Assembly (NCBI RefSeq): GCF_009931435.1
Contig: NZ_CP043414.1
Length of the DNA stretch: 64,000 bases
Source: Escherichia coli
GTDB taxonomy: Bacteria > Pseudomonadota > Gammaproteobacteria > Enterobacterales > Enterobacteriaceae
Reading direction: 5' to 3' (one strand)
Part shown: piece after piece, positions 2,706 through 21,471 of the stretch
Layout: each line of letters opens with the position of its first letter
Position numbering within the stretch: the first letter of the stretch is position 1
The notes under the pieces: generated by a model
The model's input: the letters and a program-made list of their open reading frames with translations, nothing else
What the model was told of the DNA's origin: nothing
Databases searched by the model: none
Position numbers and translations under genes: made by a program

Positions 2706-2738
2706 GCTTACCCTGAATATTCAGGGTAAGCGGTTTTA
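2706..2738 (+). terminator. intrinsic terminator downstream of maeB
   Basis: Inverted repeat gcttaccctgaa/tat/tcagggtaagc followed by ggtttt, 19 nt after the maeB stop codon. Confidence 0.6.
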
Positions 2739-2739
2739 C

Positions 2740-3314: not shown

Positions 3315-3326
3315 TACGAGGCATTC

Positions 3327-3806
3327 ATGAAACGAATTGCGTTTGTGGGTGTCGTCGGGGCAGGAAAAACAACGTTATTTAATGCGTTGCAGGGGAATTA
3401 TACCCTCGCCAGAAAAACACAGGCCGTGGAATTTAATGATAAGGGCGATATTGATACGCCGGGTGAATATTTTAGCCATCCCCGCTGGTATCACGCCTTA
3501 ATTACCACGCTACAGGATGTGGACATGCTGATTTATGTCCACGGCGCGAATGACCCGGAAAGCCGATTGCCTGCCGGGTTGCTGGATATTGGTGCCAGCA
3601 AACGGCAAATCGCCGTCATCAGTAAAACGGACATGCCGGATGCTGACGTCGCAGCAACGCGAAAGTTATTGCTTGAAACTGGTTTTGAAGAGCCGATTTT
3701 CGAGCTAAACAGCCACGACCCGCAAAGCGTGCAGCAACTGGTGAATTATCTGGCATCTCTCACCGAACAGGAGGAAGCAGGTGAAAAAACTCATCACAGC
3801 GAATGA
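3327..3806 (+). CDS. eutP: ethanolamine utilisation GTPase/acetate kinase-like protein EutP
   Basis: 159 aa; P-loop GVVGAGKTT near N-terminus; eut operon position. Confidence 0.88.
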   Translation: MKRIAFVGVVGAGKTTLFNALQGNYTLARKTQAVEFNDKGDIDTPGEYFSHPRWYHALITTLQDVDMLIYVHGANDPESRLPAGLLDIGASKRQIAVISKTDMPDADVAATRKLLLETGFEEPIFELNSHDPQSVQQLVNYLASLTEQEEAGEKTHHSE

Positions 3807-4482
3807 TATTCGTGAAGCACATGCGCGCGGCGAACAGGCAATGTCTGTGGTTCTGCGCGCCAGCATTATTACCCCGGAAGCCCGCGAAGTGGCGGACTTG
3901 CTGGGGTTTACCATCACCGAATGCACTGAATCGACGCCAGTAGCGGCATCTGTTCCCGTCAGCGTGCCTGCCGATAAAACTGAAAGCCAGCGTATCCGCG
4001 AAACCATCATCGCCCAGCTGCCGGAAGGCCAGTTTACCGAAAGCCTGGTCGCGCAGCTGATGGAAAAAGTGATGAAGGAAAAACAGTCGCTGGAGCAGGG
4101 GGCAATGCAGCCGAGTTTTAAATCGGTGACCGGCAAAGGCGGCATCAAAGTTATTGATGGCAGCAGCGTGAAGTTTGGTCGTTTCGATGGCGCGGAACCG
4201 CACTGCGTAGGCTTGACTGATCTCGTGACCGGAGACGACGGCAGCAGCATGGCCGCCGGTTTTATGCAGTGGGAGAACGCCTTCTTCCCGTGGACCCTGA
4301 ACTACGACGAAATCGACATGGTACTGGAAGGGGAGCTTCATGTTCGCCATGAAGGCGAAACCATGATCGCCAAAGCGGGCGACGTGATGTTTATCCCGAA
4401 AGGCTCCAGCATCGAATTTGGTACGACATCCAGCGTGAAATTCCTGTATGTCGCCTGGCCGGCTAACTGGCAATCCCTATGA
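3781..4482 (+). CDS. eutQ: ethanolamine utilisation cupin-domain protein EutQ
   Basis: 233 aa ORF overlapping the eutP 3' end by 26 nt; operon position. Confidence 0.85.
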   Translation: MKKLITANDIREAHARGEQAMSVVLRASIITPEAREVADLLGFTITECTESTPVAASVPVSVPADKTESQRIRETIIAQLPEGQFTESLVAQLMEKVMKEKQSLEQGAMQPSFKSVTGKGGIKVIDGSSVKFGRFDGAEPHCVGLTDLVTGDDGSSMAAGFMQWENAFFPWTLNYDEIDMVLEGELHVRHEGETMIAKAGDVMFIPKGSSIEFGTTSSVKFLYVAWPANWQSL

Positions 4483-5282
4483 AAGATTTCATCACCGAAG
4501 CATGGCTAAGAGCGAACCATACGCTCAGCGAAGGCGCAGAGATCCATCTCCCTGCGGACAGTCGCCTGACGCCCTCTGCCCGGGAGTTACTGGAAAGCCG
4601 CCATCTGCGCATCAAGTTTATTGACGAGCAGGGCCGCCTGTTTGTTGACGATGAACAGCAGCAGCTACAGCCCGTTCACGTGCTGACCAGTAGTGATGAA
4701 CATCCGCAGGCGTGCTGCGAACTGTGTCACCAGCCAGTGGCGAAAAAGCCGGACACGCTGACTCACCTGTCGGCGGAAAAAATGGTCGCCAAAAGCGATC
4801 CGCGCCTGGGTTTTCGCGCTGTTCTCGACAGCACCATTGCGCTGGTAGTGTGGCTGCAAATTGAACTGACAGAACCGTGGCAGCCGTGGCTGGCGGATAT
4901 CCGTTCGCGTCTTGGCAACATTATGCGTGCCGATGTGTTGGGCGAACCGCTGGGCTGCCAGGCGATTGTCGGGTTTTCTGACGAAGATCTGCATCGACTT
5001 TCTCACCAGCCACTACGTTATCTCGACCACGATCATCTGGTGCCGGAAGCCAGCCACGGACGTGATGCGGCGTTGCTGAATCTGCTACGCACCAAAGTGC
5101 GGGAAACCGAAACCGTAGCGGCGCAGGTGTTTATCACCCGCAGTTTTGAAGTATTACGCCCGGACATCTTACAGGCGCTGAACCGCCTTTCCAGCACGGT
5201 CTACGTGATGATGATTTTGAGCGTAACGAAGCAGCCGCTAACGGTGAAACAGATCCAACAACGACTGGGAGAGACGCAATGA
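4479..5282 (+). CDS. eutT: ethanolamine utilisation cob(I)alamin adenosyltransferase EutT
   Basis: 267 aa; 4-nt start/stop overlap with eutQ and eutD; operon position. Confidence 0.88.
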
Positions 5283-6295
5283 TTATTGAACGTTGTCGTG
5301 AACTGGCGTTGCGAGCGCCCGCCAGAGTAGTTTTTCCGGATGCGTTAGATCAACGTGTGCTGAAAGCTGCGCAATATTTACATCAACAAGGTCTGGCAAC
5401 GCCCATTCTGGTCGCCAATCCGTTTGAACTTCGTCAGTTTGCGCTCAGCCACGGCGTGGCGATGGACGGGCTACTGGTGATTGATCCTCATAGCAACCTC
5501 GCAATGCGGGAAGAATTTGCTCATCGCTGGCTGGCCCGCGCGGGCGAAAAAACGCCGCCGGATGCGCTGGAAAAACTTACCGATCCGCTGATGTTCGCCG
5601 CCGCAATGGTCAGCGCCGGTAAAGCGGATGTCTGTATCGCGGGCAACCTCTCTTCCACGGCGAATGTGCTGCGTGCCGGATTACGCATTATCGGCTTGCA
5701 GCAAGGCTGTAAAACGCTCTCCTCCATTTTCCTGATGCTGCCACAGTACAGCGGTCCAGCGTTGGGCTTTGCCGATTGCAGCGTAGTGCCACAGCCGACG
5801 GCGGCACAACTGGCGGATATCGCGCTTGCCAGCGCCGAAACCTGGCGAGCCATCACCGGAGAAGAGCCGCGGGTGGCGATGTTGTCGTTCTCCAGTAACG
5901 GCAGCGCCCGTCACCCCTGCGTTGCCAACGTCCAGCAAGCGACAGAAATCGTCCGTGAGCGCGCACCGCAGCTGGTCGTCGATGGCGAGTTGCAGTTTGA
6001 CGCCGCCTTTGTGCCAGAAGTGGCGGCGCAAAAAGCGCCAGCCAGCCCGCTACAGGGCAAAGCCAATGTGATGGTTTTTCCGTCGCTGGAGGCGGGAAAT
6101 ATTGGCTACAAAATCGCACAACGACTTGGCGGATATCGTGCCGTCGGGCCATTGATACAAGGACTTGCCGCGCCGATGCACGATCTTTCTCGTGGTTGTA
6201 GCGTGCAGGAAATTATCGAGCTGGCGCTGGTGGCAGCTGTGCCGCGTCAGACAAAAGTGAACCGCGAAAGCAGTTTACAAACACTGGTTGAATGA
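5279..6295 (+). CDS. eutD: phosphotransacetylase EutD
   Basis: 338 aa; PTA family sequence; operon position. Confidence 0.9.
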
Positions 6296-6333
6296 ACGGT
6301 CCCGTTCTGGACCCCTATAAAGAGGAAAACACA

Positions 6334-6627
6334 ATGGAAGCATTAGGAATGATCGAAACCCGGGGCCTGGTTGCACTGATTGAGGCTTCTGACGCGATGG
6401 TGAAAGCTGCGCGCGTCAAGCTGGTTGGTGTTAAGCAGATTGGCGGCGGCCTGTGTACTGCCATGGTTCGTGGTGATGTTGCAGCCTGTAAAGCCGCAAC
6501 CGATGCCGGTGCCGCAGCGGCACAGCGTATCGGTGAACTGGTATCCGTACATGTTATTCCGCGTCCGCACGGCGATCTGGAAGAGGTCTTCCCGATCGGC
6601 CTGAAAGGCGATAGCAGCAACCTGTAA
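6334..6627 (+). CDS. eutM: microcompartment shell protein EutM (BMC-H)
   Basis: 97 aa from ATG at 6334 ([26 protein letters not shown]...), canonical BMC domain; RBS agagga at 6321-6326. Confidence 0.9.
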
Positions 6628-6733
6628 TCACCCTGTGTGACGTCGATCCGGGCGTCACGCTCTCTCCTTTTTCAGTTTACCTTCCGCGGAGGGTAGGGGG
6701 AGCTTTTACCTGAAATACGCCACGGAGGCGGGT

Positions 6734-7021
6734 ATGAAACTGGCAGTCGTCACTGGACAAATTGTTTGTACCGTACGCCATCACGGACTGGCGCATGACA
6801 AATTGCTGATGGTGGAAATGATTGATCCACAAGGTAATCCTGACGGGCAATGCGCCGTCGCCATCGACAATATTGGCGCGGGAACCGGGGAGTGGGTGTT
6901 GCTGGTGAGTGGCAGTTCCGCCCGCCAGGCGCATAAAAGCGAAACGTCACCGGTCGATCTGTGCGTAATTGGCATTGTCGATGAGGTGGTCTCTGGCGGT
7001 CAGGTAATTTTCCACAAATAA
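6734..7021 (+). CDS. eutN: microcompartment vertex protein EutN (BMV/pentamer family)
   Basis: 95 aa; EutN/CcmL-like sequence; operon position. Confidence 0.88.
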   Translation: MKLAVVTGQIVCTVRHHGLAHDKLLMVEMIDPQGNPDGQCAVAIDNIGAGTGEWVLLVSGSSARQAHKSETSPVDLCVIGIVDEVVSGGQVIFHK

Positions 7022-7032
7022 GGCAGAACATC

Positions 7033-8436
7033 ATGAATCAACAGGATATTGAACAGGTGGTGAAAGCGGTACTGCTGAAAATGCAAAGCAGTGACACGCC
7101 GCCCGCCGCCGTTCATGAGATGGGCGTTTTTGCTTCCCTGGATGACGCCGTTGCGGCAGCCAAAATTGCCCAGCAAGGGTTAAAGAGCGTGGCAATGCGC
7201 CAGTTAGCCATTGCCGCTATTCGTGAAGCAGGCGAAAAACACGCCAGAGATTTAGCGGAACTTGCCGTCAGTGAAACGGGTATGGGCCGCGTAGAAGATA
7301 AATTTGCCAAAAACGTCGCTCAGGCACGCGGTACGCCAGGCGTTGAGTGCCTCTCTCCACAGGTGCTGACCGGTGACAACGGCCTGACTTTAATTGAAAA
7401 CGCGCCCTGGGGCGTGGTGGCTTCGGTGACGCCTTCCACTAACCCGGCGGCAACCGTAATTAATAACGCCATCAGCCTGATTGCCGCGGGCAACAGCGTC
7501 ATTTTTGCCCCGCATCCGGCGGCGAAAAAAGTCTCTCAACGGGCTATTACGCTGCTCAACCAGGCGATTGTTGCCGCAGGCGGGCCGGAAAACTTACTGG
7601 TTACTGTGGCCAATCCGGATATCGAAACCGCGCAACGTTTGTTCAAGTTCCCGGGTATCGGCCTGCTGGTGGTGACCGGCGGCGAAGCGGTAGTGGAAGC
7701 GGCGCGTAAACACACCAATAAACGTCTGATTGCCGCAGGCGCTGGCAACCCACCGGTAGTGGTGGATGAAACCGCCGACCTCGCCCGTGCCGCTCAGTCT
7801 ATCGTCAAAGGCGCTTCTTTCGATAACAACATCATTTGTGCCGATGAAAAGGTGCTGATTGTTGTTGATAGCGTAGCCGATGAACTAATGCGTCTGATGG
7901 AAGGCCAGCATGCGGTGAAACTGACCGCAGAACAGGCACAGCAGTTACAACCGGTGTTGCTGAAAAATATCGATGAGCGCGGAAAAGGCACCGTCAGCCG
8001 TGACTGGGTGGGTCGCGATGCGGCGAAAATCGCGGCGGCAATCGGCCTGAACGTGCCGCAAGAAACGCGCTTGCTGTTTGTAGAAACCCCCGCAGAACAT
8101 CCGTTTGCCGTGACCGAACTGATGATGCCAGTGCTGCCGGTCGTGCGCGTCGCCAACGTGGCGGATGCCATTGCGCTGGCGGTGAAACTGGAAGGCGGTT
8201 GCCACCACACGGCGGCAATGCACTCGCGCAATATCGAGAACATGAACCAAATGGCGAACGCCATTGATACCAGTATTTTCGTTAAGAACGGACCGTGCAT
8301 TGCCGGGCTGGGGCTGGGCGGGGAAGGCTGGACCACGATGACCATCACCACGCCAACCGGTGAAGGGGTAACCAGCGCGCGTACGTTTGTCCGTCTGCGT
8401 CGCTGTGTATTAGTCGATGCGTTTCGCATTGTTTAA
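7033..8436 (+). CDS. eutE: CoA-acylating acetaldehyde dehydrogenase EutE
   Basis: 467 aa aldehyde dehydrogenase family ORF; operon position. Confidence 0.9.
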   Translation: MNQQDIEQVVKAVLLKMQSSDTPPAAVHEMGVFASLDDAVAAAKIAQQGLKSVAMRQLAIAAIREAGEKHARDLAELAVSETGMGRVEDKFAKNVAQARGTPGVECLSPQVLTGDNGLTLIENAPWGVVASVTPSTNPAATVINNAISLIAAGNSVIFAPHPAAKKVSQRAITLLNQAIVAAGGPENLLVTVANPDIETAQRLFKFPGIGLLVVTGGEAVVEAARKHTNKRLIAAGAGNPPVVVDETADLARAAQSIVKGASFDNNIICADEKVLIVVDSVADELMRLMEGQHAVKLTAEQAQQLQPVLLKNIDERGKGTVSRDWVGRDAAKIAAAIGLNVPQETRLLFVETPAEHPFAVTELMMPVLPVVRVANVADAIALAVKLEGGCHHTAAMHSRNIENMNQMANAIDTSIFVKNGPCIAGLGLGGEGWTTMTITTPTGEGVTSARTFVRLRRCVLVDAFRIV

Positions 8437-8446
8437 GGAGTAACCG

Positions 8447-9283
8447 ATGGCGCACGACGAACAATGGCTTACCCCGCGTCTGCAAACGGCGGCAACGCTG
8501 TGTAACCAGACGCCCGCCACCACGGAGTCTCCGTTGTGGTTAGGGGTGGATCTGGGCACCTGCGATGTGGTGTCGATGGTTGTCGACGGCGACGGTCAGC
8601 CGGTGGCGGTATGCCTCGACTGGGCCGATGTGGTCCGCGACGGCATCGTCTGGGATTTCTTCGGTGCAGTTACGATTGTTCGTCGCCATCTCGATACCCT
8701 CGAGCAGCAATTTGGTCGCCGTTTTAGCCGTGCGGCGACTTCATTTCCACCAGGTACGGATCCGCGTATTTCCATCAATGTGCTGGAGTCTGCCGGGCTG
8801 GAAGTGAGCCATGTGCTGGATGAGCCAACCGCAGTCGCGGATCTACTGCAACTGGACAACGCCGGTGTAGTGGATATTGGCGGCGGCACTACCGGAATTG
8901 CCATCGTGAAAAAGGGCAAGGTGACTTATTCAGCGGATGAAGCGACCGGCGGACATCACATTTCTCTGACTCTCGCCGGAAATCGCCGTATTTCGCTGGA
9001 AGAGGCAGAGCAGTACAAGCGCGGTCACGGTGACGAGATTTGGCCTGCGGTGAAGCCGGTGTACGAAAAAATGGCGGACATTGTTGCCCGGCATATTGAA
9101 GGGCAGGGCATTACTGATTTATGGCTGGCGGGCGGCTCCTGTATGCAACCGGGCGTGGCGGAACTGTTTTGCAAACAATTCCCGGCGTTACAGGTGCATC
9201 TACCGCAGCACAGTTTGTTTATGACCCCGCTGGCGATCGCCAGTAGCGGGCGAGAGAAAGCGGAGGGGATCTATGCAAAATGA
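8447..9283 (+). CDS. eutJ: ethanolamine utilisation chaperone-like protein EutJ (actin/Hsp70 fold)
   Basis: 278 aa; DLGTCDV and DIGGGTTG ATPase motifs. Confidence 0.88.
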   Translation: MAHDEQWLTPRLQTAATLCNQTPATTESPLWLGVDLGTCDVVSMVVDGDGQPVAVCLDWADVVRDGIVWDFFGAVTIVRRHLDTLEQQFGRRFSRAATSFPPGTDPRISINVLESAGLEVSHVLDEPTAVADLLQLDNAGVVDIGGGTTGIAIVKKGKVTYSADEATGGHHISLTLAGNRRISLEEAEQYKRGHGDEIWPAVKPVYEKMADIVARHIEGQGITDLWLAGGSCMQPGVAELFCKQFPALQVHLPQHSLFMTPLAIASSGREKAEGIYAK

Positions 9284-10460
9284 ATTGCAGACCGCGCTCT
9301 TTCAGGCGTTCGATACCCTGAATCTGCAACGGGTAAAAACATTTAGCGTTCCACCGGTGACGCTTTGCGGTCCGGGCGCGGTGAGCAGTTGCGGACAGCA
9401 AGCGCAAACGCGTGGGCTGAAACATCTGTTCGTGATGGCAGACAGCTTTTTGCATCAGGCAGGGATGACCGCCGGGCTGACGCGTAGCCTGGCCGTTAAA
9501 GGTATCGCCATGACGCTCTGGCCATGTCCGGTGGGCGAACCGTGCATCACTGACGTGTGTGCCGCCGTGGCGCAGTTGCGTGAATCAGGCTGTGATGGGG
9601 TGATCGCGTTTGGCGGTGGCTCGGTGCTGGATGCGGCAAAAGCCGTGGCGTTGCTGGTAACGAATCCCGATAGCACGCTGGCAGAAATGTCAGAAACCAG
9701 CGTTCTGCAACCGCGCCTGCCGTTGATTGCCATTCCAACTACCGCCGGAACCGGCTCTGAAACCACCAATGTAACGGTGATTATCGACGCGGTGAGCGGG
9801 CGCAAGCAGGTGTTAGCACATGCCTCGTTGATGCCGGATGTGGCGATTCTCGACGCCGCGCTGACCGAAGGTGTGCCGTCGCATGTCACGGCAATGACCG
9901 GTATCGACGCGTTAACTCATGCCATTGAAGCGTACAGCGCGCTGAACGCTACACCGTTTACAGACAGCCTGGCGATTGGCGCAATTGCGATGATTGGTAA
10001 ATCACTGCCGAAAGCAGTGGGTTACGGTCATGACCTTGCCGCGCGCGAGAGTATGTTGCTGGCTTCATGCATGGCGGGAATGGCATTTTCCAGTGCCGGA
10101 CTTGGGTTATGTCACGCGATGGCGCATCAGCCGGGGGCGGCGCTGCATATTCCGCACGGTCTGGCGAACGCCATGCTGCTGCCCACGGTGATGGAGTTTA
10201 ACCGGATGGTCTGTCGCGAACGGTTTAGTCAGATTGGTCGGGCGCTGCGAACTAAAAAATCCGACGATCGTGACGCTATTAACGCGGTAAGTGAGCTGAT
10301 TGCGGAAGTCGGGATTGGTAAACGACTGGGCGATGTTGGTGCGGCATCTGCGCATTACGGCGCATGGGCGCAGGCCGCGCTGGAAGATATTTGTCTGCGC
10401 AGCAACCCGCGTACCGCCAGCCTGGAGCAGATTGTCGGCTTGTACGCAGCGGCGCAATAA
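9273..10460 (+). CDS. eutG: iron-containing alcohol dehydrogenase EutG
   Basis: 395 aa Fe-ADH family ORF; operon position. Confidence 0.9.
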   Translation: MQNELQTALFQAFDTLNLQRVKTFSVPPVTLCGPGAVSSCGQQAQTRGLKHLFVMADSFLHQAGMTAGLTRSLAVKGIAMTLWPCPVGEPCITDVCAAVAQLRESGCDGVIAFGGGSVLDAAKAVALLVTNPDSTLAEMSETSVLQPRLPLIAIPTTAGTGSETTNVTVIIDAVSGRKQVLAHASLMPDVAILDAALTEGVPSHVTAMTGIDALTHAIEAYSALNATPFTDSLAIGAIAMIGKSLPKAVGYGHDLAARESMLLASCMAGMAFSSAGLGLCHAMAHQPGAALHIPHGLANAMLLPTVMEFNRMVCRERFSQIGRALRTKKSDDRDAINAVSELIAEVGIGKRLGDVGAASAHYGAWAQAALEDICLRSNPRTASLEQIVGLYAAAQ

Positions 10461-10676
<216 letters not shown>

Positions 10677-11903
10677 ATGGGAATTAACGAAATCATCATG
10701 TACATCATGATGTTCTTTATGCTGATAGCTGCCGTAGACAGGATCTTGTCGCAGTTCGGCGGTTCGGCTCGTTTCCTCGGTAAGTTTGGTAAAAGTATCG
10801 AAGGATCGGGCGGCCAGTTCGAAGAAGGCTTTATGGCAATGGGCGCACTGGGCCTGGCGATGGTCGGTATGACCGCACTGGCACCAGTACTGGCCCACGT
10901 ACTTGGGCCGGTGATTATCCCGGTTTACGAAATGCTCGGCGCAAACCCGTCAATGTTCGCTGGAACACTGCTGGCGTGCGACATGGGCGGCTTCTTCCTC
11001 GCGAAAGAGCTGGCGGGCGGCGATGTGGCAGCGTGGCTATACTCTGGGTTAATTCTCGGATCGATGATGGGGCCAACGATTGTGTTTTCCATTCCGGTGG
11101 CGCTCGGCATTATCGAACCTTCTGACCGTCGTTATCTGGCGCTCGGCGTGCTGGCGGGCATTGTGACCATTCCGATTGGCTGTATTGCTGGTGGTCTGGT
11201 GGCTATGTACTCCGGTGTGCAGATCAACGGTCAGCCGGTGGAATTCACCTTTGCCCTGATCCTGATGAACATGATCCCGGTACTTATCGTTGCGGTGCTG
11301 GTGGCGCTGGGGCTGAAATTCATCCCGGAAAAAATGATCAACGGCTTCCAGATCTTCGCCAAATTCCTCGTTGCATTGATCACCCTCGGTCTTGCTGCCG
11401 CGGTAGTGAAATTCCTCCTTGGCTGGGAACTGATCCCCGGTCTGGATCCTATCTTTATGGCCCCTGGCGATAAACCCGGTGAAGTGATGCGCGCCATTGA
11501 AGTTATCGGTTCTATCTCCTGCGTGCTGTTAGGGGCGTATCCGATGGTGCTGCTGCTGACCCGCTGGTTTGAAAAACCGCTGATGAGCGTCGGTAAAGTG
11601 CTGAATATGAACAACATCGCGGCAGCCGGCATGGTGGCAACGCTTGCCAACAACATCCCGATGTTCGGCATGATGAAGCAGATGGATACCCGCGGCAAAG
11701 TGATCAACTGTGCCTTCGCCGTTTCCGCTGCTTTCGCCCTGGGTGACCATTTAGGCTTCGCCGCTGCCAACATGAACGCCATGATCTTCCCGATGATTGT
11801 CGGCAAGTTGATCGGCGGCGTTACGGCGATTGGCGTGGCGATGATGCTGGTGCCAAAAGAAGACGCGACCGCGGCTAAAACCGAAGCGGAGGCACAATCG
11901 TGA
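10677..11903 (+). CDS. eutH: ethanolamine permease EutH
   Basis: 408 aa polytopic membrane protein; operon position. Confidence 0.9.
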   Translation: MGINEIIMYIMMFFMLIAAVDRILSQFGGSARFLGKFGKSIEGSGGQFEEGFMAMGALGLAMVGMTALAPVLAHVLGPVIIPVYEMLGANPSMFAGTLLACDMGGFFLAKELAGGDVAAWLYSGLILGSMMGPTIVFSIPVALGIIEPSDRRYLALGVLAGIVTIPIGCIAGGLVAMYSGVQINGQPVEFTFALILMNMIPVLIVAVLVALGLKFIPEKMINGFQIFAKFLVALITLGLAAAVVKFLLGWELIPGLDPIFMAPGDKPGEVMRAIEVIGSISCVLLGAYPMVLLLTRWFEKPLMSVGKVLNMNNIAAAGMVATLANNIPMFGMMKQMDTRGKVINCAFAVSAAFALGDHLGFAAANMNAMIFPMIVGKLIGGVTAIGVAMMLVPKEDATAAKTEAEAQS

Positions 11904-13303
11904 ACACTCGCCAGCTACTGAGCGTCGGTATCGATATCGGCACTACCACCACCCAGGTGATCTTCTCCCACCTGGAGCTGGTTAACCGTGCGGCGGTGTC
12001 GCAGGTGCCGCGCTACGAATTCATCAAACGCGAAATTAGCTGGCAAAGCCCGGTGTTCTTTACCCCTGTCGATAAACTGGGCGGTTTAAAAGAAGCGGAA
12101 CTGAAAACCTTAATCCTCGAGCAATATCAGGCTGCGGGCATTGCGCCGGAAAGCGTTGATTCTGGTGCCATCATCATCACCGGTGAAAGCGCGAAAACCC
12201 GCAATGCTCGCCCGGCGGTGATGACGCTCTCCCAGTCGCTTGGCGATTTTGTCGTCGCCAGCGCCGGGCCGCATCTCGAATCCGTGATCGCCGGTCACGG
12301 TGCCGGGGCGCAAACCCTTTCTGAACAACGGCTGTGTCGGGTACTGAATATCGATATTGGCGGTGGCACCGCGAACTACGCTTTGTTCGATGCCGGAAAA
12401 ATCAGCGGCACCGCTTGCCTCAACGTCGGCGGTCGCCTGCTGGAAACCGACAGCCAGGGGCGCGTGGTTTACGCTCATAAACCGGGGCAGATGATAGTGG
12501 ATGAGTGCTTCGGTGCAGGCACTGACGCCCGTTCGCTGACCGGCGCGCAGCTGGTGCAGGTTACCCGGCGGATGGCGGAACTGATTGTCGAAGTGATTGA
12601 CGGAACGCTCTCGCCGCTCGCGCAGGCATTGATGCAAACCGGTTTGCTGCCCGCAGGTGTTACGCCCGAAATCATTACGCTTTCTGGCGGCGTGGGCGAA
12701 TGTTATCGCCACCAGCCCGCCGACCCGTTCTGTTTTGCCGATATCGGCCCGCTTCTGGCAACGGCGCTGCATGAGCATCCTCGTCTGCGTGAGATGAACG
12801 TGCAGTTTCCGGCGCAAACCGTACGCGCCACGGTGATTGGCGCGGGTGCACATACCCTTTCGCTCTCTGGCAGCACAATCTGGCTGGAGGGCGTACAACT
12901 GCCGCTGCGCAATTTGCCGGTGGCGATCCCAATTGATGAAACGGATCTGGTGAGTGCCTGGCAACAGGCGCTGATTCAGCTGGATCTTTGCCCCAAAACT
13001 GACGCGTACGTGCTGGCGCTTCCCGCCTCGCTGCCTGTGCGTTACGCCGCGGTACTGACGGTCATCAACGCGCTGGTCGATTTCGTCGCGCGTTTTCCGA
13101 ATCCGCATCCCCTGCTGGTGGTGGCCGGGCAGGATTTTGGTAAAGCTCTGGGCATGTTGTTGCGCCCACAGCTACAACAACTCCCGTTGGCAGTCATTGA
13201 CGAAGTGATTGTCCGCGCGGGGGACTATATCGACATTGGTACGCCTCTTTTTGGCGGATCGGTTGTGCCGGTGACGGTGAAATCACTCGCATTTCCTTCC
13301 TGA
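11900..13303 (+). CDS. eutA: ethanolamine ammonia-lyase reactivase EutA
   Basis: 467 aa; operon position; followed 11 nt later by eutB with no intervening element. Confidence 0.9.
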   Translation: MNTRQLLSVGIDIGTTTTQVIFSHLELVNRAAVSQVPRYEFIKREISWQSPVFFTPVDKLGGLKEAELKTLILEQYQAAGIAPESVDSGAIIITGESAKTRNARPAVMTLSQSLGDFVVASAGPHLESVIAGHGAGAQTLSEQRLCRVLNIDIGGGTANYALFDAGKISGTACLNVGGRLLETDSQGRVVYAHKPGQMIVDECFGAGTDARSLTGAQLVQVTRRMAELIVEVIDGTLSPLAQALMQTGLLPAGVTPEIITLSGGVGECYRHQPADPFCFADIGPLLATALHEHPRLREMNVQFPAQTVRATVIGAGAHTLSLSGSTIWLEGVQLPLRNLPVAIPIDETDLVSAWQQALIQLDLCPKTDAYVLALPASLPVRYAAVLTVINALVDFVARFPNPHPLLVVAGQDFGKALGMLLRPQLQQLPLAVIDEVIVRAGDYIDIGTPLFGGSVVPVTVKSLAFPS

Positions 13304-13314
13304 GGGAACGACTT

Positions 13315-14676
13315 ATGAAACTAAAGACCACATTGTTCGGCAATGTATATCAGTTTAAGGATGTAAAAGAGGTGCTGGCTAAAGCCAACGAACTGCGTTC
13401 GGGGGATGTGCTGGCGGGCGTTGCAGCGGCAAGCTCACAGGAGCGCGTGGCTGCAAAGCAGGTGTTGTCGGAAATGACCGTAGCGGACATCCGCAATAAT
13501 CCGGTGATTGCCTATGAAGATGACTGCGTGACGCGACTGATTCAGGACGACGTTAACGAAACGGCCTACAACCAGATTAAAAACTGGAGCATCAGCGAAC
13601 TGCGTGAGTATGTGCTGAGTGATGAAACCAGCGTTGACGACATTGCTTTTACCCGCAAAGGGCTGACCTCGGAAGTGGTCGCGGCGGTAGCGAAGATTTG
13701 CTCTAACGCGGACCTGATCTACGGCGCGAAGAAAATGCCGGTAATCAAAAAGGCCAATACAACTATTGGTATTCCGGGCACCTTCAGCGCCCGTTTGCAG
13801 CCAAACGATACCCGCGACGACGTGCAAAGTATCGCCGCGCAAATCTACGAAGGGCTTTCTTTCGGGGTGGGCGATGCGGTGATCGGCGTTAACCCGGTGA
13901 CTGACGACGTGGAAAACTTAAGCCGCGTGCTGGATACCATCTATGGCGTGATCGACAAATTCAACATTCCAACCCAGGGCTGCGTGCTGGCGCACGTCAC
14001 CACCCAGATCGAAGCGATTCGTCGCGGTGCGCCGGGCGGGCTGATTTTCCAGAGTATCTGCGGCAGTGAAAAAGGGCTGAAAGAGTTTGGCGTAGAGCTG
14101 GCGATGCTCGATGAAGCACGCGCAGTGGGCGCAGAGTTTAACCGTATCGCCGGGGAAAACTGCCTCTACTTCGAAACCGGGCAGGGTTCTGCGCTATCGG
14201 CGGGCGCTAACTTCGGTGCAGATCAGGTAACGATGGAAGCGCGTAACTACGGGCTGGCACGTCATTACGATCCGTTTATCGTCAACACCGTAGTGGGCTT
14301 TATTGGGCCAGAGTATCTCTACAACGACCGGCAGATTATCCGTGCGGGCTTAGAAGATCACTTTATGGGCAAACTGAGCGGCATTTCTATGGGCTGTGAC
14401 TGCTGCTACACCAACCACGCTAACGCTGACCAGAACCTCAACGAAAACCTGATGATCCTGCTCGCCACCGCAGGCTGCAACTACATCATGGGGATGCCGC
14501 TGGGCGATGACATCATGCTCAACTATCAGACTACGGCCTTCCACGACACCGCCACTGTGCGTCAGTTACTCAACCTGCGCCCGTCACCGGAGTTTGAACG
14601 CTGGCTGGAAAGCATGGGCATTATGGCAAACGGTCGCCTGACCAAACGGGCGGGCGATCCGTCACTGTTCTTCTGA
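13315..14676 (+). CDS. eutB: ethanolamine ammonia-lyase large subunit EutB
   Basis: 453 aa; RBS gaggga upstream; operon position. Confidence 0.92.
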   Translation: MKLKTTLFGNVYQFKDVKEVLAKANELRSGDVLAGVAAASSQERVAAKQVLSEMTVADIRNNPVIAYEDDCVTRLIQDDVNETAYNQIKNWSISELREYVLSDETSVDDIAFTRKGLTSEVVAAVAKICSNADLIYGAKKMPVIKKANTTIGIPGTFSARLQPNDTRDDVQSIAAQIYEGLSFGVGDAVIGVNPVTDDVENLSRVLDTIYGVIDKFNIPTQGCVLAHVTTQIEAIRRGAPGGLIFQSICGSEKGLKEFGVELAMLDEARAVGAEFNRIAGENCLYFETGQGSALSAGANFGADQVTMEARNYGLARHYDPFIVNTVVGFIGPEYLYNDRQIIRAGLEDHFMGKLSGISMGCDCCYTNHANADQNLNENLMILLATAGCNYIMGMPLGDDIMLNYQTTAFHDTATVRQLLNLRPSPEFERWLESMGIMANGRLTKRAGDPSLFF

Positions 14677-14696
14677 TGACGCGGAGATAACACATC

Positions 14697-15584
14697 ATGG
14701 ATCAAAAACAGATTGAAGAAATTGTACGCAGCGTGATGGCGTCAATGGGACAAGCGGCCCCCGCGCCGTCAGAAGCAAAATGCGCCACTACCACCTGTGC
14801 GGCACCGGTGACCTCGGAAAGCTGCGCGCTGGATTTAGGTTCCGCGGAAGCAAAAGCGTGGATTGGCGTTGAAAACCCGCATCGCGCAGACGTATTAACA
14901 GAACTGCGCCGCAGCACCGTGGCTCGCGTCTGTACCGGTCGTGCTGGTCCGCGTCCGCGTACCCAGGCGCTGTTGCGTTTCCTGGCCGATCACTCTCGTT
15001 CGAAAGACACCGTACTGAAAGAAGTGCCGGAAGAGTGGGTGAAAGCGCAGGGCTTGCTGGAAGTCCGCTCTGAAATTAGCGACAAAAATCTCTATCTGAC
15101 TCGCCCGGATATGGGCCGCCGCTTGTGTGCAGAGGCTGTTGAAGCGCTGAAAGCGCAGTGTGTTGCCAATCCGGACGTACAGGTGGTTATTTCCGATGGT
15201 CTGTCTACTGATGCGATCACCGTGAACTATGAAGAGATTCTGCCACCGCTGATGGCGGGCCTGAAACAGGCCGGGTTGAAAGTCGGCACACCGTTCTTTG
15301 TGCGTTACGGTCGCGTGAAGATTGAAGATCAGATTGGCGAACTTCTTGGCGCGAAAGTGGTGATCCTGCTGGTGGGTGAACGTCCGGGGTTGGGGCAGTC
15401 AGAAAGTCTCTCCTGCTACGCCGTTTACTCGCCGCGTATGGCAACCACCGTTGAGGCCGACCGTACCTGTATCTCTAACATTCACCAGGGCGGCACGCCG
15501 CCGGTTGAAGCCGCAGCCGTCATTGTGGATTTGGCGAAACGTATGCTGGAGCAGAAAGCATCCGGCATCAACATGACCCGATAA
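14697..15584 (+). CDS. eutC: ethanolamine ammonia-lyase small subunit EutC
   Basis: 295 aa; operon position. Confidence 0.92.
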
Positions 15585-15593
15585 GGAGGCATC

Positions 15594-16253
15594 ATGCCAG
15601 CTTTAGATTTGATTCGACCGTCGGTAACCGCCATGCGGGTGATTGCCTCTGTTAACGCCGAATTTGCGCGTGAACTGAAATTGCCGCCGCATATTCGTAG
15701 CCTCGGGCTGATTTCTGCTGATTCCGATGACGTCACCTACATTGCGGCTGACGAAGCGACCAAGCAGGCGATGGTTGAAGTCGTGTATGGTCGCTCGCTG
15801 TATGCGGGAGCCGCACACGGCCCGTCACCGACTGCCGGTGAAGTGCTGATTATGCTCGGGGGGCCAAACCCGGCGGAAGTGCGTGCTGGTCTGGATGCGA
15901 TGGTTGCGCATATTGAAAATGGCGCGGCTTTCCAGTGGGCTAACGACGCGCAAGATACGGCATTCCTGGCACATGTAGTTTCGCGTACCGGTTCTTATCT
16001 CTCATCAACCGCCGGGATCACGCTTGGCGATCCGATGGCGTATTTGGTGGCACCGCCGCTGGAAGCGACCTACGGCATTGATGCAGCGTTGAAATCTGCC
16101 GACGTGCAGCTGGTGACCTATGTCCCGCCACCGTCTGAAACCAACTACTCGGCAGCATTTTTAACCGGTAGCCAGGCCGCGTGTAAAGCAGCCTGTAACG
16201 CCTTTACCGATGCAGTGCTGGAAATCGCGCGTAATCCAATCCAGCGTGCGTAA
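15594..16253 (+). CDS. eutL: microcompartment shell protein EutL (tandem BMC)
   Basis: 219 aa; operon position. Confidence 0.9.
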
Positions 16254-16265
16254 CGGAGGTTGCCG

Positions 16266-16766
16266 ATGATCAATGCACTGGGATTGCTGGAAGTGGACGG
16301 CATGGTCGCCGCGATAGATGCAGCTGATGCCATGCTCAAAGCAGCTAACGTTCGTCTGCTCAGTCACGAAGTGCTTGACCCTGGTCGCCTAACGCTGGTG
16401 GTGGAAGGCGATCTGGCGGCGTGTCGTGCGGCGCTGGACGCAGGTTGTGCTGCCGCGATGCGTACCGGGCGTGTCATCAGCCGTAAGGAGATCGGTCGGC
16501 CAGACGATGACACCCAGTGGCTGGTTACTGGCTTTAACCGCCAGCCGAAGCAATCCGTAAAGGAACCCGACGCGCCAGTTATCGTCGCGGAATCTGCTGA
16601 CGAGTTGTTGGCGCTGTTAACATCAGTACGTCAGGGAATGACGGCAGGAGAAGTGGCTGCCCACTTTGGCTGGCCGCTGGAAAAAGCCAGAAATGCGCTC
16701 GAACAGCTCTTTTCTGCCGGGACGTTACGTAAACGCAGTAGTCGTTATCGTCTCAAGCCCCATTAA
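16266..16766 (+). CDS. eutK: microcompartment shell protein EutK (BMC domain plus C-terminal helix-turn-helix-like tail)
   Basis: 166 aa from ATG at 16266 (MINALGLLEVDGMVAAIDAADAM...), RBS ggagg at 16255-16259. Confidence 0.88.
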   Translation: MINALGLLEVDGMVAAIDAADAMLKAANVRLLSHEVLDPGRLTLVVEGDLAACRAALDAGCAAAMRTGRVISRKEIGRPDDDTQWLVTGFNRQPKQSVKEPDAPVIVAESADELLALLTSVRQGMTAGEVAAHFGWPLEKARNALEQLFSAGTLRKRSSRYRLKPH

Positions 16767-16811
16767 CCTGTCGGAGGTGCCGGGTGTCCTACAACACCCG
16801 GCATTAACATC

Positions 16812-17864
16812 ATGAAAAAGACCCGTACAGCCAATTTGCACCATCTTTATCATGAACCCTTACCCGAAAACCTGAAGCTCACGCCGAAGGTCGAAGTGGA
16901 TAATGTTCATCAACGGCAAACAACGGATGTCTATGAACATGCTTTGACGATTACCGCCTGGCAGCAGATTTACGATCAGCTGCATCCGGGCAAGTTTCAT
17001 GGTGAATTTACGGAAATTCTACTCGATGATATTCAGGTTTTTCGTGAATACACCGGTCTGGCGCTGCGTCAGTCGTGCCTGGTCTGGCCGAACTCGTTCT
17101 GGTTTGGCATTCCGGCGACACGCGGTGAGCAGGGATTTATCGGTTCGCAATGTCTGGGAAGCGCAGAAATAGCGACGCGCCCTGGAGGAACCGAGTTTGA
17201 ATTAAGTACGCCGGACGATTACACGATCCTTGGCGTGGTGCTTTCTGAAGATGTCATCACCCGTCAGGCTAACTTTTTGCATAACCCGGAAAGGGTGCTG
17301 CATATGTTACGTAACCAGTCGGCGCTGGAAGTGAAAGAGCAGCATAAAGCCGCGCTGTGGGGCTTTGTCCAACAGGCTCTGGCGACATTTTGCGAGAACC
17401 CGGAAAATCTCCATCAGCCTGCAGTGCGAAAAGTGCTGGGGGATAATTTGCTAATGGCGATGGGGGCGATGCTGGAAGAAGCGCAGCCAATGGTGACGGC
17501 GGAAAGTATCAGCCACCAGAGTTACCGTCGCTTGTTGACCCGCGCGCGTGAATATGTGCTGGAGAATATGTCCGAACCGGTAACCGTGCTGGATTTGTGC
17601 AATCAACTGCATGTCAGCCGCCGCACGCTACAAAACGCGTTTCACGCTCTTTTAGGCATTGGCCCAAACGCGTGGCTGAAACGCATTCGCCTGAACGCCG
17701 TGCGCCGCGAACTGATAAGCCCGTGGTCGCAAAGTACAACGGTCAAAGATGCCGCCATGCAGTGGGGATTCTGGCATCTGGGGCAATTCGCCACGGATTA
17801 CCAGCAACTGTTTGCCGAGAAGCCGTCTCTGACGCTACATCAGCGGATGCAGGAACTGGAGTGA
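16812..17864 (+). CDS. eutR: AraC-family transcriptional activator of the eut operon
   Basis: 350 aa; AraC-type HTH in C-terminal region; last gene of the cluster. Confidence 0.9.
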
Positions 17865-17940
17865 GGGTGAGGGCCGGATGAGGATGGTGTTTGATCCGGT
17901 CCATAGTGAAGTTACAAATTACGTTGAATTGCTATGTATT

Positions 17941-18258
17941 TTATTGCCCAACGGGATAGGCGATAAACAAACCGACAATTGTCAGAATACACGCCAGCAG
18001 GAATACCAACATACAATTTACGCGCTTTCGCGAAATTTTAAATAAATAGCAAAATAGTGTTGTTACCACGATCACTACCGGGATAGTCATAAAATTAATA
18101 ACGATGAGTGCTATCAATCCAAAACTTGCTCCTCCACCGTGGGGAATAAAAATGTGTTCTTCAAAATAAACTTCTATAGCAAATGCCAGCACACATCCCA
18201 GAAAACTCATATCCAGATGAGGGTGCCATTTACTTTCTTTATTTGATGTGTCTGACAT
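17941..18258 (-). CDS. hypothetical small membrane protein (three predicted TM helices), AT-rich
   Basis: 105 aa ORF with three hydrophobic stretches; gggag RBS ~10 nt upstream of ATG; clearly AT-rich by eye against flanking genes; sits in an interval I do not recognise as conserved core. Confidence 0.5.
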   Translation of the reverse strand: MSDTSNKESKWHPHLDMSFLGCVLAFAIEVYFEEHIFIPHGGGASFGLIALIVINFMTIPVVIVVTTLFCYLFKISRKRVNCMLVFLLACILTIVGLFIAYPVGQ

Positions 18259-18298
18259 TCTTAAATGCTCCCGTGAGCAAACTGGCGCAAAATAATTT

Positions 18299-19561
18299 CT
18301 AAGATTGCTGATAAGACGTCGCTGTTGTCCGGCACTCCGGGCAGATAAACGCGTAAATTATCCCTTCGCCATATTGTTCAATATCGGCATAATCCAGTTG
18401 CGCAAGAAACATCATTGTGTGGGAACATTGCGGACAGAGAGGATATTCCGCGTCCTGAATCCAGGTTGGATGCCCGCCAAGTTGCGAGAAAGAGACAGGT
18501 AAAAATGGGTCTGCGGCAAATAACGGTGACCTAAGGTTTCCCTGTCTCATGCTGTTTACAGGGAGTCGACGCCATTCCGATACATCATCCGGCAGCTAGG
18601 CAGGCGGGATATTTTTTGCAGACAAATGAGCGTTACCCTTTGAGTCCATGTAGCCGAAAATGGTGCTGTAGGCGGTGCAACATTCGCAAGTCACGACGCG
18701 AAAACTGCCGTTATCGCTAAGACCCGTTGCCTTCAGGTCAACGTCGAAAAGATTTGTTAGGGGCAATGCGCACTTTGGACAGGTATCGCTGCGTTCATCA
18801 ACAACACGCAAAGCTTCGCAAGACCCGGTGCTTTTCATCTCCAGATGAAAACATTGAGGAAAATAGAGATTACGCCTTTGATCTTCAGCGGTTAACTCCC
18901 AACCGGCCTCATGCGCATATTCTTCTGGCGCGATGTAAAGTGAACTGCGCCACAGCGGCGGGTTATTGCGCCAGTAGGCAAAACGTTCAACAACAACGTC
19001 ATCCCCAATCCATGCCAGACATTGCAGAATACAATTTCTGTTTTCTGCATCATCCTCAACCCGTTCTAACAGCGTATCGCGAACATCCGCTGGGGCGCGG
19101 TGGAAAGGCAGAGGAGAATAAGCGTCTAAATCATCATAAGAGATCCACTCTCGTAAATATGCATCCAGATTTGCCTGGGTAAACGCCGCCAGACAAAGAC
19201 AAATCTCCTGAGCGTGTTCATATTCACCAGACGCAAAGCGTTCTGTGGCGTAATCAGCCATCAGCTGCGCTTGATCGGCGGTCAACTGTTGATACAGGGC
19301 ATCGGTGGGAGCGGGGCAGGGAGTCCAGTCGATTAACGCATCGAATTTCCGTGGCTGGTGAACTAATTTCAGCATGGCAATCGGATCGCTTAGCCCAGCA
19401 AACACATTCACGGTCTTTTTATTTTTCCTGATATATTCATCGTGCTCACGCTGCTGTTGTGCCTGAACGCAGGGCATACAGTATCCGTCAGTACGCGCAG
19501 CGGTTTCCGGAAGAATGGTTGATGTACAAGCGGGGCTTTTACAGGGAATACGGTGAGTCAT
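18299..19561 (-). pseudogene. DUF1963 (YwqG-like) family gene interrupted by one in-frame TAG at 18596-18598
   Basis: 321 aa ORF (19561..18596) and 83 aa ORF (18550..18299) are in the same frame, separated by TAG plus 15 sense codons; downstream part carries GGHPTWIQDAEYPLCPQCSHTMMFLAQLD...GEGIIYAFICPEC, matching the conserved DUF1963 core; strong RBS aaggag before the ATG at 19561, none before the internal ATG. Confidence 0.6.
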
Positions 19562-19698
19562 AGAGGCGCTCCTTGCCTGAGGATATTAAGTCGAAAGAGA
19601 TTATTATTAGATATTAGGGTGTCACTATGGCACACAAATTAAACAGAATTAATTTCAAGCCACAAACATAGGGTTATTTTTCTTTTATTTTCATGATA

Positions 19699-20601
<903 letters not shown>

Positions 20602-21471
20602 TTACCGCTTTCTCGAGTGTGCTTTCTGGTTGTCAAACCAGTGGAAATAACTGATCACGCCTTCGGCAATGGCTGTGGCGATTTTCTGGCGAAATGCCGC
20701 CGTGCCTAACAGCCGCTCTTCTTCCGGGTTGGTGATAAAAGAAGTTTCCACCAGCACCGAAGGAACAGATGGCGATTTCAACACTACAAACGCGGCTTGT
20801 TCGGTGTTGCGACTGTGCAGCTTATGCACCGGCTTAATCTTCTTCAGAATATGTGAGCCGAGCGTCAGGCTGTTTTTAATAGTATCGGTTTGTACCAGAT
20901 CAAACAGCACTTGTTGCAATAGGTGATCCTTGTCAGTCGCTTTTTTACCGGCAACTTCATCAGCGCGGTTTTCGCGTTCAGACAAGTATTTCGCCATTGC
21001 GCTACTTGCGCCGCGGTTCGAGAGAGCAAATACCGAAGCACCGGCAGCTTTCGGGTTAGTAAAGCCGTCGGCGTGAATTGACATAAACAGGTCAGCGCCA
21101 TGTTTATGGGCGATTTCAACGCGATCGTACAGCGGGATAAACGTATCGCCAGAACGCGTTAAACGCGCATCAATGCCATGATTACGCAAAATGGAACGGA
21201 CGTTTTTGGCAATCGCCAGCACCACATGTTTTTCTTTCGATCCATTGCGACCAATCGCTCCGGTATCAATTCCGCCGTGGCCTGGATCGAGAACAACGAC
21301 ACGTTTGCCGCCGCTTTTTTTGGCTTTCGGCTTACTGTGTCCGTTACTGGTTTTTAAAGGTTCTTCTTTGGCGATGGCTTGCGACATTCCTGACAACGTC
21401 AGGGCAGCCAATCCGGCTTTCAGCACCTGGCGGCGCGAAGTGAGTGTTTTTAGTGGTTTAAAAGTGCTCAT
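20602..21471 (-). CDS. amiA: N-acetylmuramoyl-L-alanine amidase AmiA (Tat-exported)
   Basis: 289 aa; twin-arginine signal SRRQVLKAG; amidase_3 domain. Confidence 0.92.
   Translation of the reverse strand: MSTFKPLKTLTSRRQVLKAGLAALTLSGMSQAIAKEEPLKTSNGHSKPKAKKSGGKRVVVLDPGHGGIDTGAIGRNGSKEKHVVLAIAKNVRSILRNHGIDARLTRSGDTFIPLYDRVEIAHKHGADLFMSIHADGFTNPKAAGASVFALSNRGASSAMAKYLSERENRADEVAGKKATDKDHLLQQVLFDLVQTDTIKNSLTLGSHILKKIKPVHKLHSRNTEQAAFVVLKSPSVPSVLVETSFITNPEEERLLGTAAFRQKIATAIAEGVISYFHWFDNQKAHSRKR

Follow-up and report, generated by a model that had tools for sequence, protein, structure and literature searches.

The window (the whole 64,000-nucleotide stretch of Escherichia coli DNA analysed here) almost certainly carries at 2979-17864 a complete, uninterrupted EUT1-type ethanolamine-utilisation operon of a divergent E. 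coli lineage, in which the prophage site between eutA and eutB is empty and for which ethanolamine use is predicted. Gene content, intactness, junction sequence, absence of the prophage, prevalence and outgroup state are direct observations. As such, this is the usual uninterrupted eut operon with an empty, documented prophage hot spot, and it is already known. By-products of the analysis are the prevalence of the site's states (empty in 91.4% and interrupted in about 8.5% of 5,426 complete E. coli genomes), the exact attB, and the position of this attB within the most conserved stretch of 7363-18000.

Organization of the eut operon

The complete 17-gene set is flanked by maeB and hemF and lies on the plus strand in the order eutSPQTDMNEJGHABCLKR, with eutR last and maeB adjacent; order and spacing are those of MG1655 except for the prophage. 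Contiguity of the 17 genes over 2979-17864, claimed by an earlier sequence-only reading, was confirmed. All of them are equal in length to their MG1655 counterparts and contain zero internal stops. Amino-acid identity to MG1655 ranges from 96.2 to 100% (66 differences in total over the 17 Eut proteins) and DNA identity per gene from 94.0 to 99.0%.

The operon is preceded by the maeB-eutS intergenic region (2688-2978; 291 nt versus 292 nt in MG1655), which by its position we take to contain the principal eut promoter region (PI of Salmonella), its function being assumed from Salmonella and E. coli literature. Its final ~115 nt upstream of eutS are almost identical to MG1655, and its upstream half differs at several positions. 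The proximal genes are eutS (2979-3314; shell protein, 111 aa, same length and 100% amino-acid identity to MG1655), eutP (3327-3806; 159 aa, 96.2%), eutQ (3781-4482; 233 aa, 97.9%), eutT (4479-5282; corrinoid adenosyltransferase, 267 aa, 97.4%), eutD (5279-6295; phosphotransacetylase, 338 aa, 98.5%), eutM (6334-6627; shell protein, 97 aa, 100%, the mechanical ORF reaching up to 6292), eutN (6734-7021; shell vertex protein, 95 aa, 100%) and eutE (7033-8436; acetaldehyde dehydrogenase, 467 aa, 98.9%; NCBIfam NF011927, 738.7 bits). They are followed by eutJ (8447-9283; NF011660, 278 aa) and eutG (9273-10460; alcohol dehydrogenase, NF011998, 889 bits, 395 aa). The eutG-eutH spacer (10461-10676) contains two REP/BIME-like palindromic units in tandem, each about 100 nt long, and is near-identical in MG1655, where it also measures 216 nt. 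In one genome, E. coli WS3294A, this spacer is 100 nt shorter.

The distal part comprises eutH (10677-11903; ethanolamine permease, NF011665, 873 bits, 408 aa), eutA (11900-13303; ethanolamine ammonia-lyase reactivase, 98.1% amino-acid identity to MG1655), eutB (13315-14676; lyase large subunit, 453 aa, one residue different from MG1655), eutC (14697-15584; lyase small subunit, 295 aa, 99.3%), eutL (15594-16253; shell protein, NF011934, 219 aa), eutK (16266-16766; shell protein, NF012010, 166 aa) and eutR (16812-17864; AraC-family activator, NF007522, 782 bits, 350 aa). EutA, EutB, EutC, EutH, EutL, EutK, EutR, EutG, EutJ and EutE are named by NCBIfam equivalog models. The lyase pair is thus present (EutB: NF011649, 664.5 bits, cut-off 554; EutC: NF003971, 339.5 bits, cut-off 230), directly preceded at a gap of 11 nt by the reactivase EutA (NF007991, 1068.8 bits over 1-467/467, cut-off 799). 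All five shell proteins are found as well: EutL and EutK score over NCBIfam cut-offs, and EutS, EutM and EutN are identical to the MG1655 proteins.

The same 17 genes in the same order constitute the intact EUT1 loci of E. coli Nissle 1917, UPEC, EHEC and a eut+ W3110 stock. Gene set and order also agree with the 17-gene operon of Salmonella enterica LT2, with AraC-type EutR last (Kofoid et al. 1999, cited in PMC7617246). Outside the conserved block described below, eut DNA of the window is 94-96% identical to K-12 and about 83-88% to Salmonella. Between eutR and hemF, the window has two genes on a 1.8-kb insert that is lacking in K-12. Among the 5,426 complete E. coli genomes, just two reach about 99% identity with the window, and K-12 is not one of them. 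The claim that the source is not K-12 MG1655 holds more strongly than it was argued, DNA identity of the genes being only 94-99%.

The eutA/eutB junction is an empty attachment site

Gene eutA starts with GTG and ends with TGA at 13301-13303, and the ATG of eutB is at 13315; the ORF list agrees with the ends read previously. The spacer GGGAACGACTT (13304-13314, plus strand) is 11 nt long and identical in 39 of 41 outgroup loci; in the two others, both distant, it reads GGGAACGATTT. The same 11-nt spacer occurs in S. enterica locus L041 (eutA 2001-3404, eutB from 3416). A Shine-Dalgarno-like GAGGG for eutB (13302-13306, plus strand) is located 8 nt before the ATG and does not vary across all 41 outgroup loci. 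A ribosome-binding site had been placed between the two genes: the site is present, but it overlaps the eutA stop and hence is not strictly intergenic.

This junction is an unoccupied attB used by IntZ-type tyrosine-integrase islands, including CPZ-55. K-12 strains MG1655 and BW25113 possess 17 eut genes of identical length, and their eutA 3' end and spacer are identical to the window; in K-12, CPZ-55 (intZ, yffL to yffS), antisense to the operon, separates the eutA stop from the spacer, whereas the window has nothing there. In MG1655 the prophage spans 6,790 bp (2558691-2565480) between eutB (b2441) and eutA (b2451), at exactly the point where it was expected. It is inserted immediately after the eutA stop, with CTTCCTGA duplicated on both flanks. 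An 8-bp target duplication, TCAGGAAG, has been reported (PMC6379469), and the site was termed a "prophage insertion hot spot" (PMC6652756).

In the window, the core CTTCCTGA is found at 13296-13303 as a single copy made up of the last eutA codons and stop, and it is directly followed by the spacer; no second copy bracketing kilobases of foreign DNA is present. CPZ-55 DNA and its nine proteins, IntZ included, gave no match to the 64-kb window (proteins by tblastn, E <= 1e-3). Likewise, no integrase or phage genes, which would have spoken against an intact operon, are found in 13303-13315, the two genes being just 11 nt apart.

IntZ-family islands (P4-type, with DUF4102 arm-binding domain) of other E. 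coli use the very site that is empty in the window. One and the same nucleotide is the insertion point of three different islands (MG1655, 6.8 kb; PCP06102, 11.1 kb; WS3294A, 10.3 kb). All three are flanked on both sides by CTTCCTGA, and their int gene adjoins eutB in antisense to the eut operon. Cargo varies: the WS3294A island has gadC, murI and a decarboxylase pseudogene. The window attB includes a stretch of about 21 nt resembling the island arm, whereas integrase and cargo are absent. ARAGORN found neither tRNA nor tmRNA at the junction, so a tRNA-type att target was rejected. Search for IntZ relatives in viral contigs returned none, and the nearest phage integrases are only ~43% identical to IntZ. 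Literature searches for studies of intZ/eutA integration returned nothing relevant.

Prevalence and ancestral state of the junction

The relevant yardstick for an uninterrupted junction is its frequency among genomes rather than chance. A contiguous eutA/eutB junction was found in 4,961 of 5,426 complete E. coli genomes (91.4%). It is the ordinary, already documented state of the species. The site is interrupted in about 8.5%, mostly by IntZ-type islands, of which there are at least three. Full CPZ-55 occurs in 213 genomes, essentially K-12 laboratory derivatives; some 200 further genomes contain a stretch of DNA that matches intZ at 82-89% identity, and those that were examined have different cargo.

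Outgroups display the same arrangement. In 34 of 35 GTDB species representatives (Citrobacter, Klebsiella, Salmonella arizonae, Yokenella, Pluralibacter, Intestinirhabdus, Pseudocitrobacter and Escherichia spp.) eutA ends 11 nt before eutB, and in 33 of these 34 the junction is identical base for base. C. koseri is an exception in reading frame, the junction DNA being the same with a 1-nt insertion upstream. Six additional loci, picked via EutA and hence independently of the junction, all share the 11-nt geometry. Pooled, 40 of the 41 loci, spread over at least eight genera of enterobacteria, possess the 11-nt junction, supporting the earlier proposal that the uninterrupted configuration is ancestral.

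Expected function and alternative histories

Because nothing is inserted at the junction, transcription from upstream of eutS could run through eutA into eutBCLKR. Since the eutB ribosome-binding site overlaps the eutA stop, translation of eutB may be coupled to that of eutA. With an uninterrupted operon and such coupling, the strain is predicted to produce ammonia-lyase, the reactivase of this enzyme and microcompartments, and to use ethanolamine with vitamin B12, at least as nitrogen source. E. coli does not synthesize B12 de novo and the phenotype depends on supplied corrinoid. As judged from sequence, ordinary ethanolamine utilisation would be expected, a trait that has been associated with the fitness of E. 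coli in gut and urinary tract. The description of the operon as presumably functional is supported by the intact ORFs, the K-12-like promoter-proximal region and published work on BW25113. In that strain, which contains the prophage, eutB is not induced and microcompartments are absent (PMC7617246); it is unable to use ethanolamine until the prophage is removed, and scarless removal restores use as nitrogen source (PMC11334477).

An operon intact in appearance might still be silent or defective through missense or regulatory change. Any of the 66 amino-acid differences from MG1655 could be disabling, EutP, EutA and EutR carry 6, 9 and 8 substitutions, respectively, and the upstream half of the maeB-eutS spacer departs from MG1655. 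We nevertheless regard a silent operon as very unlikely on sequence grounds, given that all 17 ORFs are full-length and stop-free, that the promoter-proximal 115 nt are conserved and that substitutions are overwhelmingly synonymous (DNA 94-96% versus protein 96-100% identity to MG1655), a signature of continuing purifying selection on the eut genes. A different history is also conceivable, in which this lineage at one time acquired an IntZ-type island and later lost it by precise excision, regenerating attB. Site-specific recombination restores attB exactly, and an empty attB cannot be told apart by sequence from one so restored; a scar is not expected, which means that the sequence could not support this scenario. 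The site is recurrently used, as evidenced by its occupation in part of E. coli by several islands, and it is polymorphic within the K-12 lineage itself, a laboratory W3110 stock being reported as eut+ and BW25113 as carrying the insertion (PMC11334477). Against excision, the junction is likewise contiguous in the two closest genomes (2020CK-00188 and, by synteny, R32_14_1F), and parsimony with 40 of 41 outgroup loci favours a site that was never occupied. Past occupation thus appears improbable, and the never-interrupted operon is preferred.

A conserved block spans the junction

The attB lies within a near-invariant nucleotide block (13223-13412) composed of the last 26 eutA codons, the spacer and the first ~33 eutB codons. 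The block is sharply bounded: within it, Escherichia, Klebsiella, Citrobacter and Salmonella share 98-100% identity (1-3 differences per 180 block positions between these genera and the window), whereas flanking eut DNA is ~82% (80-85%) identical. Synonymous variation affects 17 of 57 codons inside the block versus 568 of 654 outside (Fisher p = 3.5e-20), and no other stretch of the sampled operon part (7363-18000) is equally conserved. Its deepest core, ~13265-13345, is invariant even in distant lineages. GC3 of the block (0.50-0.53) is below that of the flanks (0.66-0.68). The few variable sites track taxonomy (at 13347, for example, most Escherichia have A and the majority of other genera T), and divergence grows gradually with distance. 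A sampling artefact, suspected because the degenerate search pattern consisted of the first 50 eutB nucleotides, was rejected: without that stretch p = 7e-18, and the signal persists in loci chosen through EutA.

Known signals were searched for in and around the block. Rfam 15 cmscan of 12700-13900 (E <= 10) yielded no relevant match, only one chance snoRNA match outside the block. A sigma-70 promoter scan of both strands of 12900-13700 gave 0 sites; the same region contains two weak terminator-like hairpins on the minus strand, within chance expectation. Literature searches for an internal promoter at eutA/eutB returned nothing relevant. Folded as a single sequence, the block scores z = -0.2 (sense strand) and -1.8 (antisense strand). 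No covariation emerged from RNAalifold with 36 or with 26 sequences (term -0.17, 2 of 55 pairs with double change), the sequences varying too little for covariation to weigh much. A small ORF on the antisense strand (from 13343 or 13291 to 13194) was rejected because stops interrupt it in L042, L044 and L045.

We tentatively suggest that the block may be an undescribed cis-acting element, conserved as nucleotide sequence, that would control eutB expression, for instance by coupling, by processing of the mRNA or by binding of a factor. It is also possible, though less likely than not, that the block is an extended translation-initiation and translational-coupling region of eutB, in which the eutB Shine-Dalgarno sequence and AUG would pair with the eutA end (UUCCUUC/GAGGGAA or UGAG/CUUA) and the ribosome finishing eutA would open the eutB start, fixing codon choice on both sides. 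The block is indeed centred on the eutB start, with a core invariant in distant lineages and a Shine-Dalgarno sequence overlapping the eutA stop; predicted folds contain local hairpins with the Shine-Dalgarno sequence or AUG, and synonymous changes are reduced at other eut gene starts too (a 50-nt run at the eutH start; similarly at the eutB end/eutC start). However, 190 nt far exceeds a ribosome footprint, and compared with 400 synonymous recodings the natural sequence exhibits neither excess structure nor raised Shine-Dalgarno/AUG accessibility (z = 0.2 to 0.8), in line with the sense-strand fold and the absence of covariation. Identity across genera might instead stem from repeated overwriting by a promiscuous mobile element carrying the block, that is, from gene conversion or from att homology on a mobile element, of the kind seen for e14 at the icd 3' end, and not from purifying selection. 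The sharp edges common to all genera, the position of an att core at the centre of the block and the lowered GC3 would fit such a process. It is nonetheless highly improbable, since homology of the three examined islands to the block is limited to ~21 nt and imperfect, the variable sites follow taxonomy, and divergence rises with distance. Moreover, phage records, plasmids and IMG/VR contigs lack the block except in host eut fragments: one 4.9-kb "phage" record is such a fragment, plasmid matches are mislabelled chromosomes or megaplasmids with the whole eut operon, and the single contig from the exact IMG/VR scan is plain host eutA-eutB DNA.

If the block is a cis-acting element, this would explain why IntZ-type islands use one invariant attB across hosts, and CPZ-55 in K-12 would interrupt not only an operon but also a functional element. 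A regulatory role would give this well-studied operon a further, post-transcriptional level of control and provide a rationale for integration-site choice. Known synonymous-constraint elements inside bacterial coding regions, for example translational operators or the coupling structures found where genes of an operon meet, similarly display frozen synonymous sites across a junction, centred on a start codon. Unlike them, the block revealed no supporting structure, covariation or Rfam family; at ~190 nt it is longer than the other eut junctions and comes closer to complete invariance.

Organization of the eut operon

The eutA gene (11900-13303, GTG start, TGA stop at 13301-13303) and eutB (13315-14676) are separated only by an 11-nt spacer, GGGAACGACTT, with no phage or integrase genes at 13303-13315. 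This is in agreement with the sequence-only reading, which had described the two genes as contiguous with precisely these ends. A ribosome-binding site placed between them by the same reading is partly supported: Shine-Dalgarno-like GAGGG is present at 13302-13306, but it overlaps the eutA stop codon and is thus not wholly intergenic. Gene-by-gene comparison with K-12 MG1655 revealed that all 17 eut genes (eutSPQTDMNEJGHABCLKR) are indeed contiguous over 2979-17864, each of the same length as in MG1655 and free of internal stops. Proteins are 96.2-100% identical to those of MG1655. EutA matches its NCBIfam equivalog model over the complete 467-residue profile (1068.8 bits), and EutB, EutC, EutH, EutL, EutK, EutR, EutG, EutJ and the EutE-type aldehyde dehydrogenase match NCBIfam equivalog models far over curated cut-offs.

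The eutG-eutH spacer (10461-10676) is made up of a tandem pair of REP/BIME-like palindromic units, each about 100 nt long, as in MG1655. The same spacer is 100 nt shorter in E. coli WS3294A, so the copy number of these units is variable.

According to the model from the Salmonella literature, EutR acts with ethanolamine and adenosylcobalamin to switch on the promoter ahead of eutS, and transcripts then extend through to eutR. Divergence between the window and K-12 eut genes is overwhelmingly synonymous, and the 115 nt ahead of eutS are close to identical. The operon is therefore presumably functional, as had been proposed. Published experiments point the same way: in prophage-bearing BW25113, eutB is not induced and microcompartments are absent (PMC7617246), and scarless removal of the prophage gives growth on ethanolamine as nitrogen source like that of a eut+ strain, leading the authors to conclude that the operon must be uninterrupted (PMC11334477).

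CPZ-55 and related islands at the eutA/eutB junction

The claim that MG1655 carries CPZ-55 between eutA and eutB was borne out by annotation and by junction alignment. This annotated cryptic prophage (2558691-2565480, 6,790 bp, intZ and yffL to yffS) lies between eutB (b2441) and eutA (b2451), antisense to the operon. Its insertion point is directly after the eutA stop, with CTTCCTGA duplicated on both sides; on the eutB side, the repeat leads into the 11-nt spacer and ATG that the window also has. An 8-bp target duplication published for this site (PMC6379469) agrees with our alignment. Neither CPZ-55 DNA nor CPZ-55 proteins gave any match in the 64-kb window. Together with eut DNA identity of only 94.0-99.0%, this confirms that the source genome is not MG1655.

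Different islands occupy the identical nucleotide in two other E. coli genomes, PCP06102 (11.1 kb) and WS3294A (10.3 kb). In both, an IntZ homologue adjoins eutB and the island arm is similar to the last ~21 nt of eutA. Since the islands of MG1655, PCP06102 and WS3294A share their insertion nucleotide, positions 13296-13303 of the window are an empty attB.

The IntZ-type island of WS3294A (11082-21374 of the fetched locus L039) carries gadC, murI, a decarboxylase pseudogene and IS1. Downstream of it, eutC (22768-23655 of L039) has an internal stop, consistent with operon decay following interruption. CPZ-55 yffO (12112-12528 of the MG1655 locus L001) is annotated as terminase small subunit-like in some genomes, and genes for an HNH endonuclease and for a large protein of 728 aa are present in related islands (L038). 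No close IntZ was found in sequenced phages (identity at most 43%). Speculatively, CPZ-55-type islands might be phage satellites rather than decayed phages.

Frequency and ancestry of the empty site

Of 5,426 complete E. coli genomes compared with a 311-nt probe across the junction, 4,961 have it in one piece and about 461 (8.5%) have it split. The 213 genomes with full-length CPZ-55 at 100% identity are essentially laboratory derivatives of K-12; some 200 more share just an intZ-like segment (82-89% identical), and those examined have other cargo. Published surveys agree: CPZ-55 was reported at this locus in 8% of 638 strains (PMC6379469), and the site has been depicted as a "prophage insertion hot spot", with a novel prophage in 1 of 47 UPEC strains (PMC6652756).

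A search for eutB codons 1-17, written as a degenerate pattern, retrieved 35 GTDB species representatives, among them Citrobacter, Klebsiella, Salmonella arizonae, Yokenella, Pluralibacter, Intestinirhabdus, Pseudocitrobacter and four Escherichia species. The 11-nt distance between the end of eutA and eutB is shared by 34 of these, and the 28-nt junction CATTTCCTTCCTGAGGGAACGACTTATG is the same as in the window in 33. Escherichia whittamii differs by a single substitution; Citrobacter koseri NCTC10786 has identical junction DNA and a 1-nt insertion upstream. The latter is an extra G about 50 nt ahead of the eutA stop (GGATCGGGTTGTG vs GGATCGGTTGTG; locus L022) that causes a frameshift close to the 3' end of eutA; this eutA is a pseudogene unless the extra base is a sequencing error. 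Six further loci, picked through EutA homologues and thus independently of the junction, include S. enterica subsp. enterica; all six display the 11-nt geometry, even in lineages with only 77-87% EutA identity. Because outgroups share this junction, the uninterrupted arrangement is ancestral, as had been suggested. Precise re-excision of an island in the window's own lineage would likewise leave an empty site and is compatible with the sequence. The uninterrupted operon is the normal, ancestral and already documented state of the locus.

A near-invariant block spans the junction

Outgroup alignment revealed a block of about 190 nt (~13223-13412) with sharp edges, in which synonymous positions are fixed too. 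It is 98-100% identical among Escherichia, Salmonella, Citrobacter and Klebsiella, with flanking eut DNA at ~82%. Only 1-3 of 180 positions separate the window from Klebsiella pneumoniae, most Citrobacter species and both Salmonella loci, with the remaining aligned eut DNA at 80-85% identity. Counting only codons whose amino acid is invariant and has synonymous alternatives, 17 of 57 vary synonymously inside the block vs 568 of 654 outside (Fisher p = 3.5e-20; p = 7e-18 after dropping 50 nt of search pattern). GC3 is below that of the flanks. The block is the most conserved stretch of 7363-18000, followed by a 50-nt run at the eutH start. Conservation of the protein is not the explanation, as other eutB stretches whose protein sequence is fully conserved vary normally at synonymous positions. 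Identity of the block falls to 87-92% in more distant lineages, vs 73-85% for flanks (deepest core ~13265-13345); the constraint is therefore strong yet not absolute.

The few variable sites track taxonomy, which argues for vertical descent with purifying selection and not for recent transfer. No phage, plasmid or viral contig was found to carry the block as separate att homology. IMGVR_UViG_2554235304_000010 (L040) and phage record OR850921.1 each consist of ~5 kb of host eutA-eutB DNA, apparently pieces of host genome classed as viral. Searches at the block found no Rfam family, tRNA or sigma-70-like promoter. Covariation was absent, predicted stability showed no gain over shuffled or synonymously recoded sequence, and SD/AUG accessibility was not above that of recoded sequence. 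An antisense ORF was rejected, as it is broken in three lineages. Our best guess, a tentative one, is that the block could be an extended translation-initiation and coupling region of eutB. The eutB SD and AUG can pair with the end of eutA, and this dyad, TTCCTTC-CTG-AGGGAA, includes the integrase crossover core and may for that reason underlie integrase recognition. Whatever its function, the invariance of the block offers IntZ-type islands an identical target across many hosts. No publication on the block was found in the literature searched, coverage of which was incomplete.

Relatives of the window and other loci

Only 2 of the 5,426 complete genomes are close to the window, namely 2020CK-00188 (human rectal swab) and R32_14_1F (goat), at 98-99.3% identity; all others are at ~95-96.6%. 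This fits an E. coli lineage that is rare and divergent, and whose position may be like that of cryptic clade I. Full coverage of 44001-64000 is likewise found in only two genomes.

The gap between eutR and hemF (17865-19698) holds a 1.8-kb two-gene insert (ORFs 17941-18258 and 18299-19561, minus strand); MG1655 lacks it, and there eutR and hemF are separated by 5 nt. The DUF1963-family gene of the insert, coding for 420 aa in 2020CK-00188, has a premature stop in the window (TGG to TAG, 18596-18598) and is therefore probably a pseudogene. Between yfeH and xapA (45985-49246) lies an accessory cluster of three genes, coding for an OmpK/Tsx-like outer-membrane protein, a nucleoside permease and a nucleoside 2-deoxyribosyltransferase. 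On either side of gltX is a tRNA cluster, Val-Val-Val-Lys at 52633-53029 (minus strand) and two tRNA-Ala(GGC) at 55728-55918 (plus strand), which is the usual layout of this chromosomal region.
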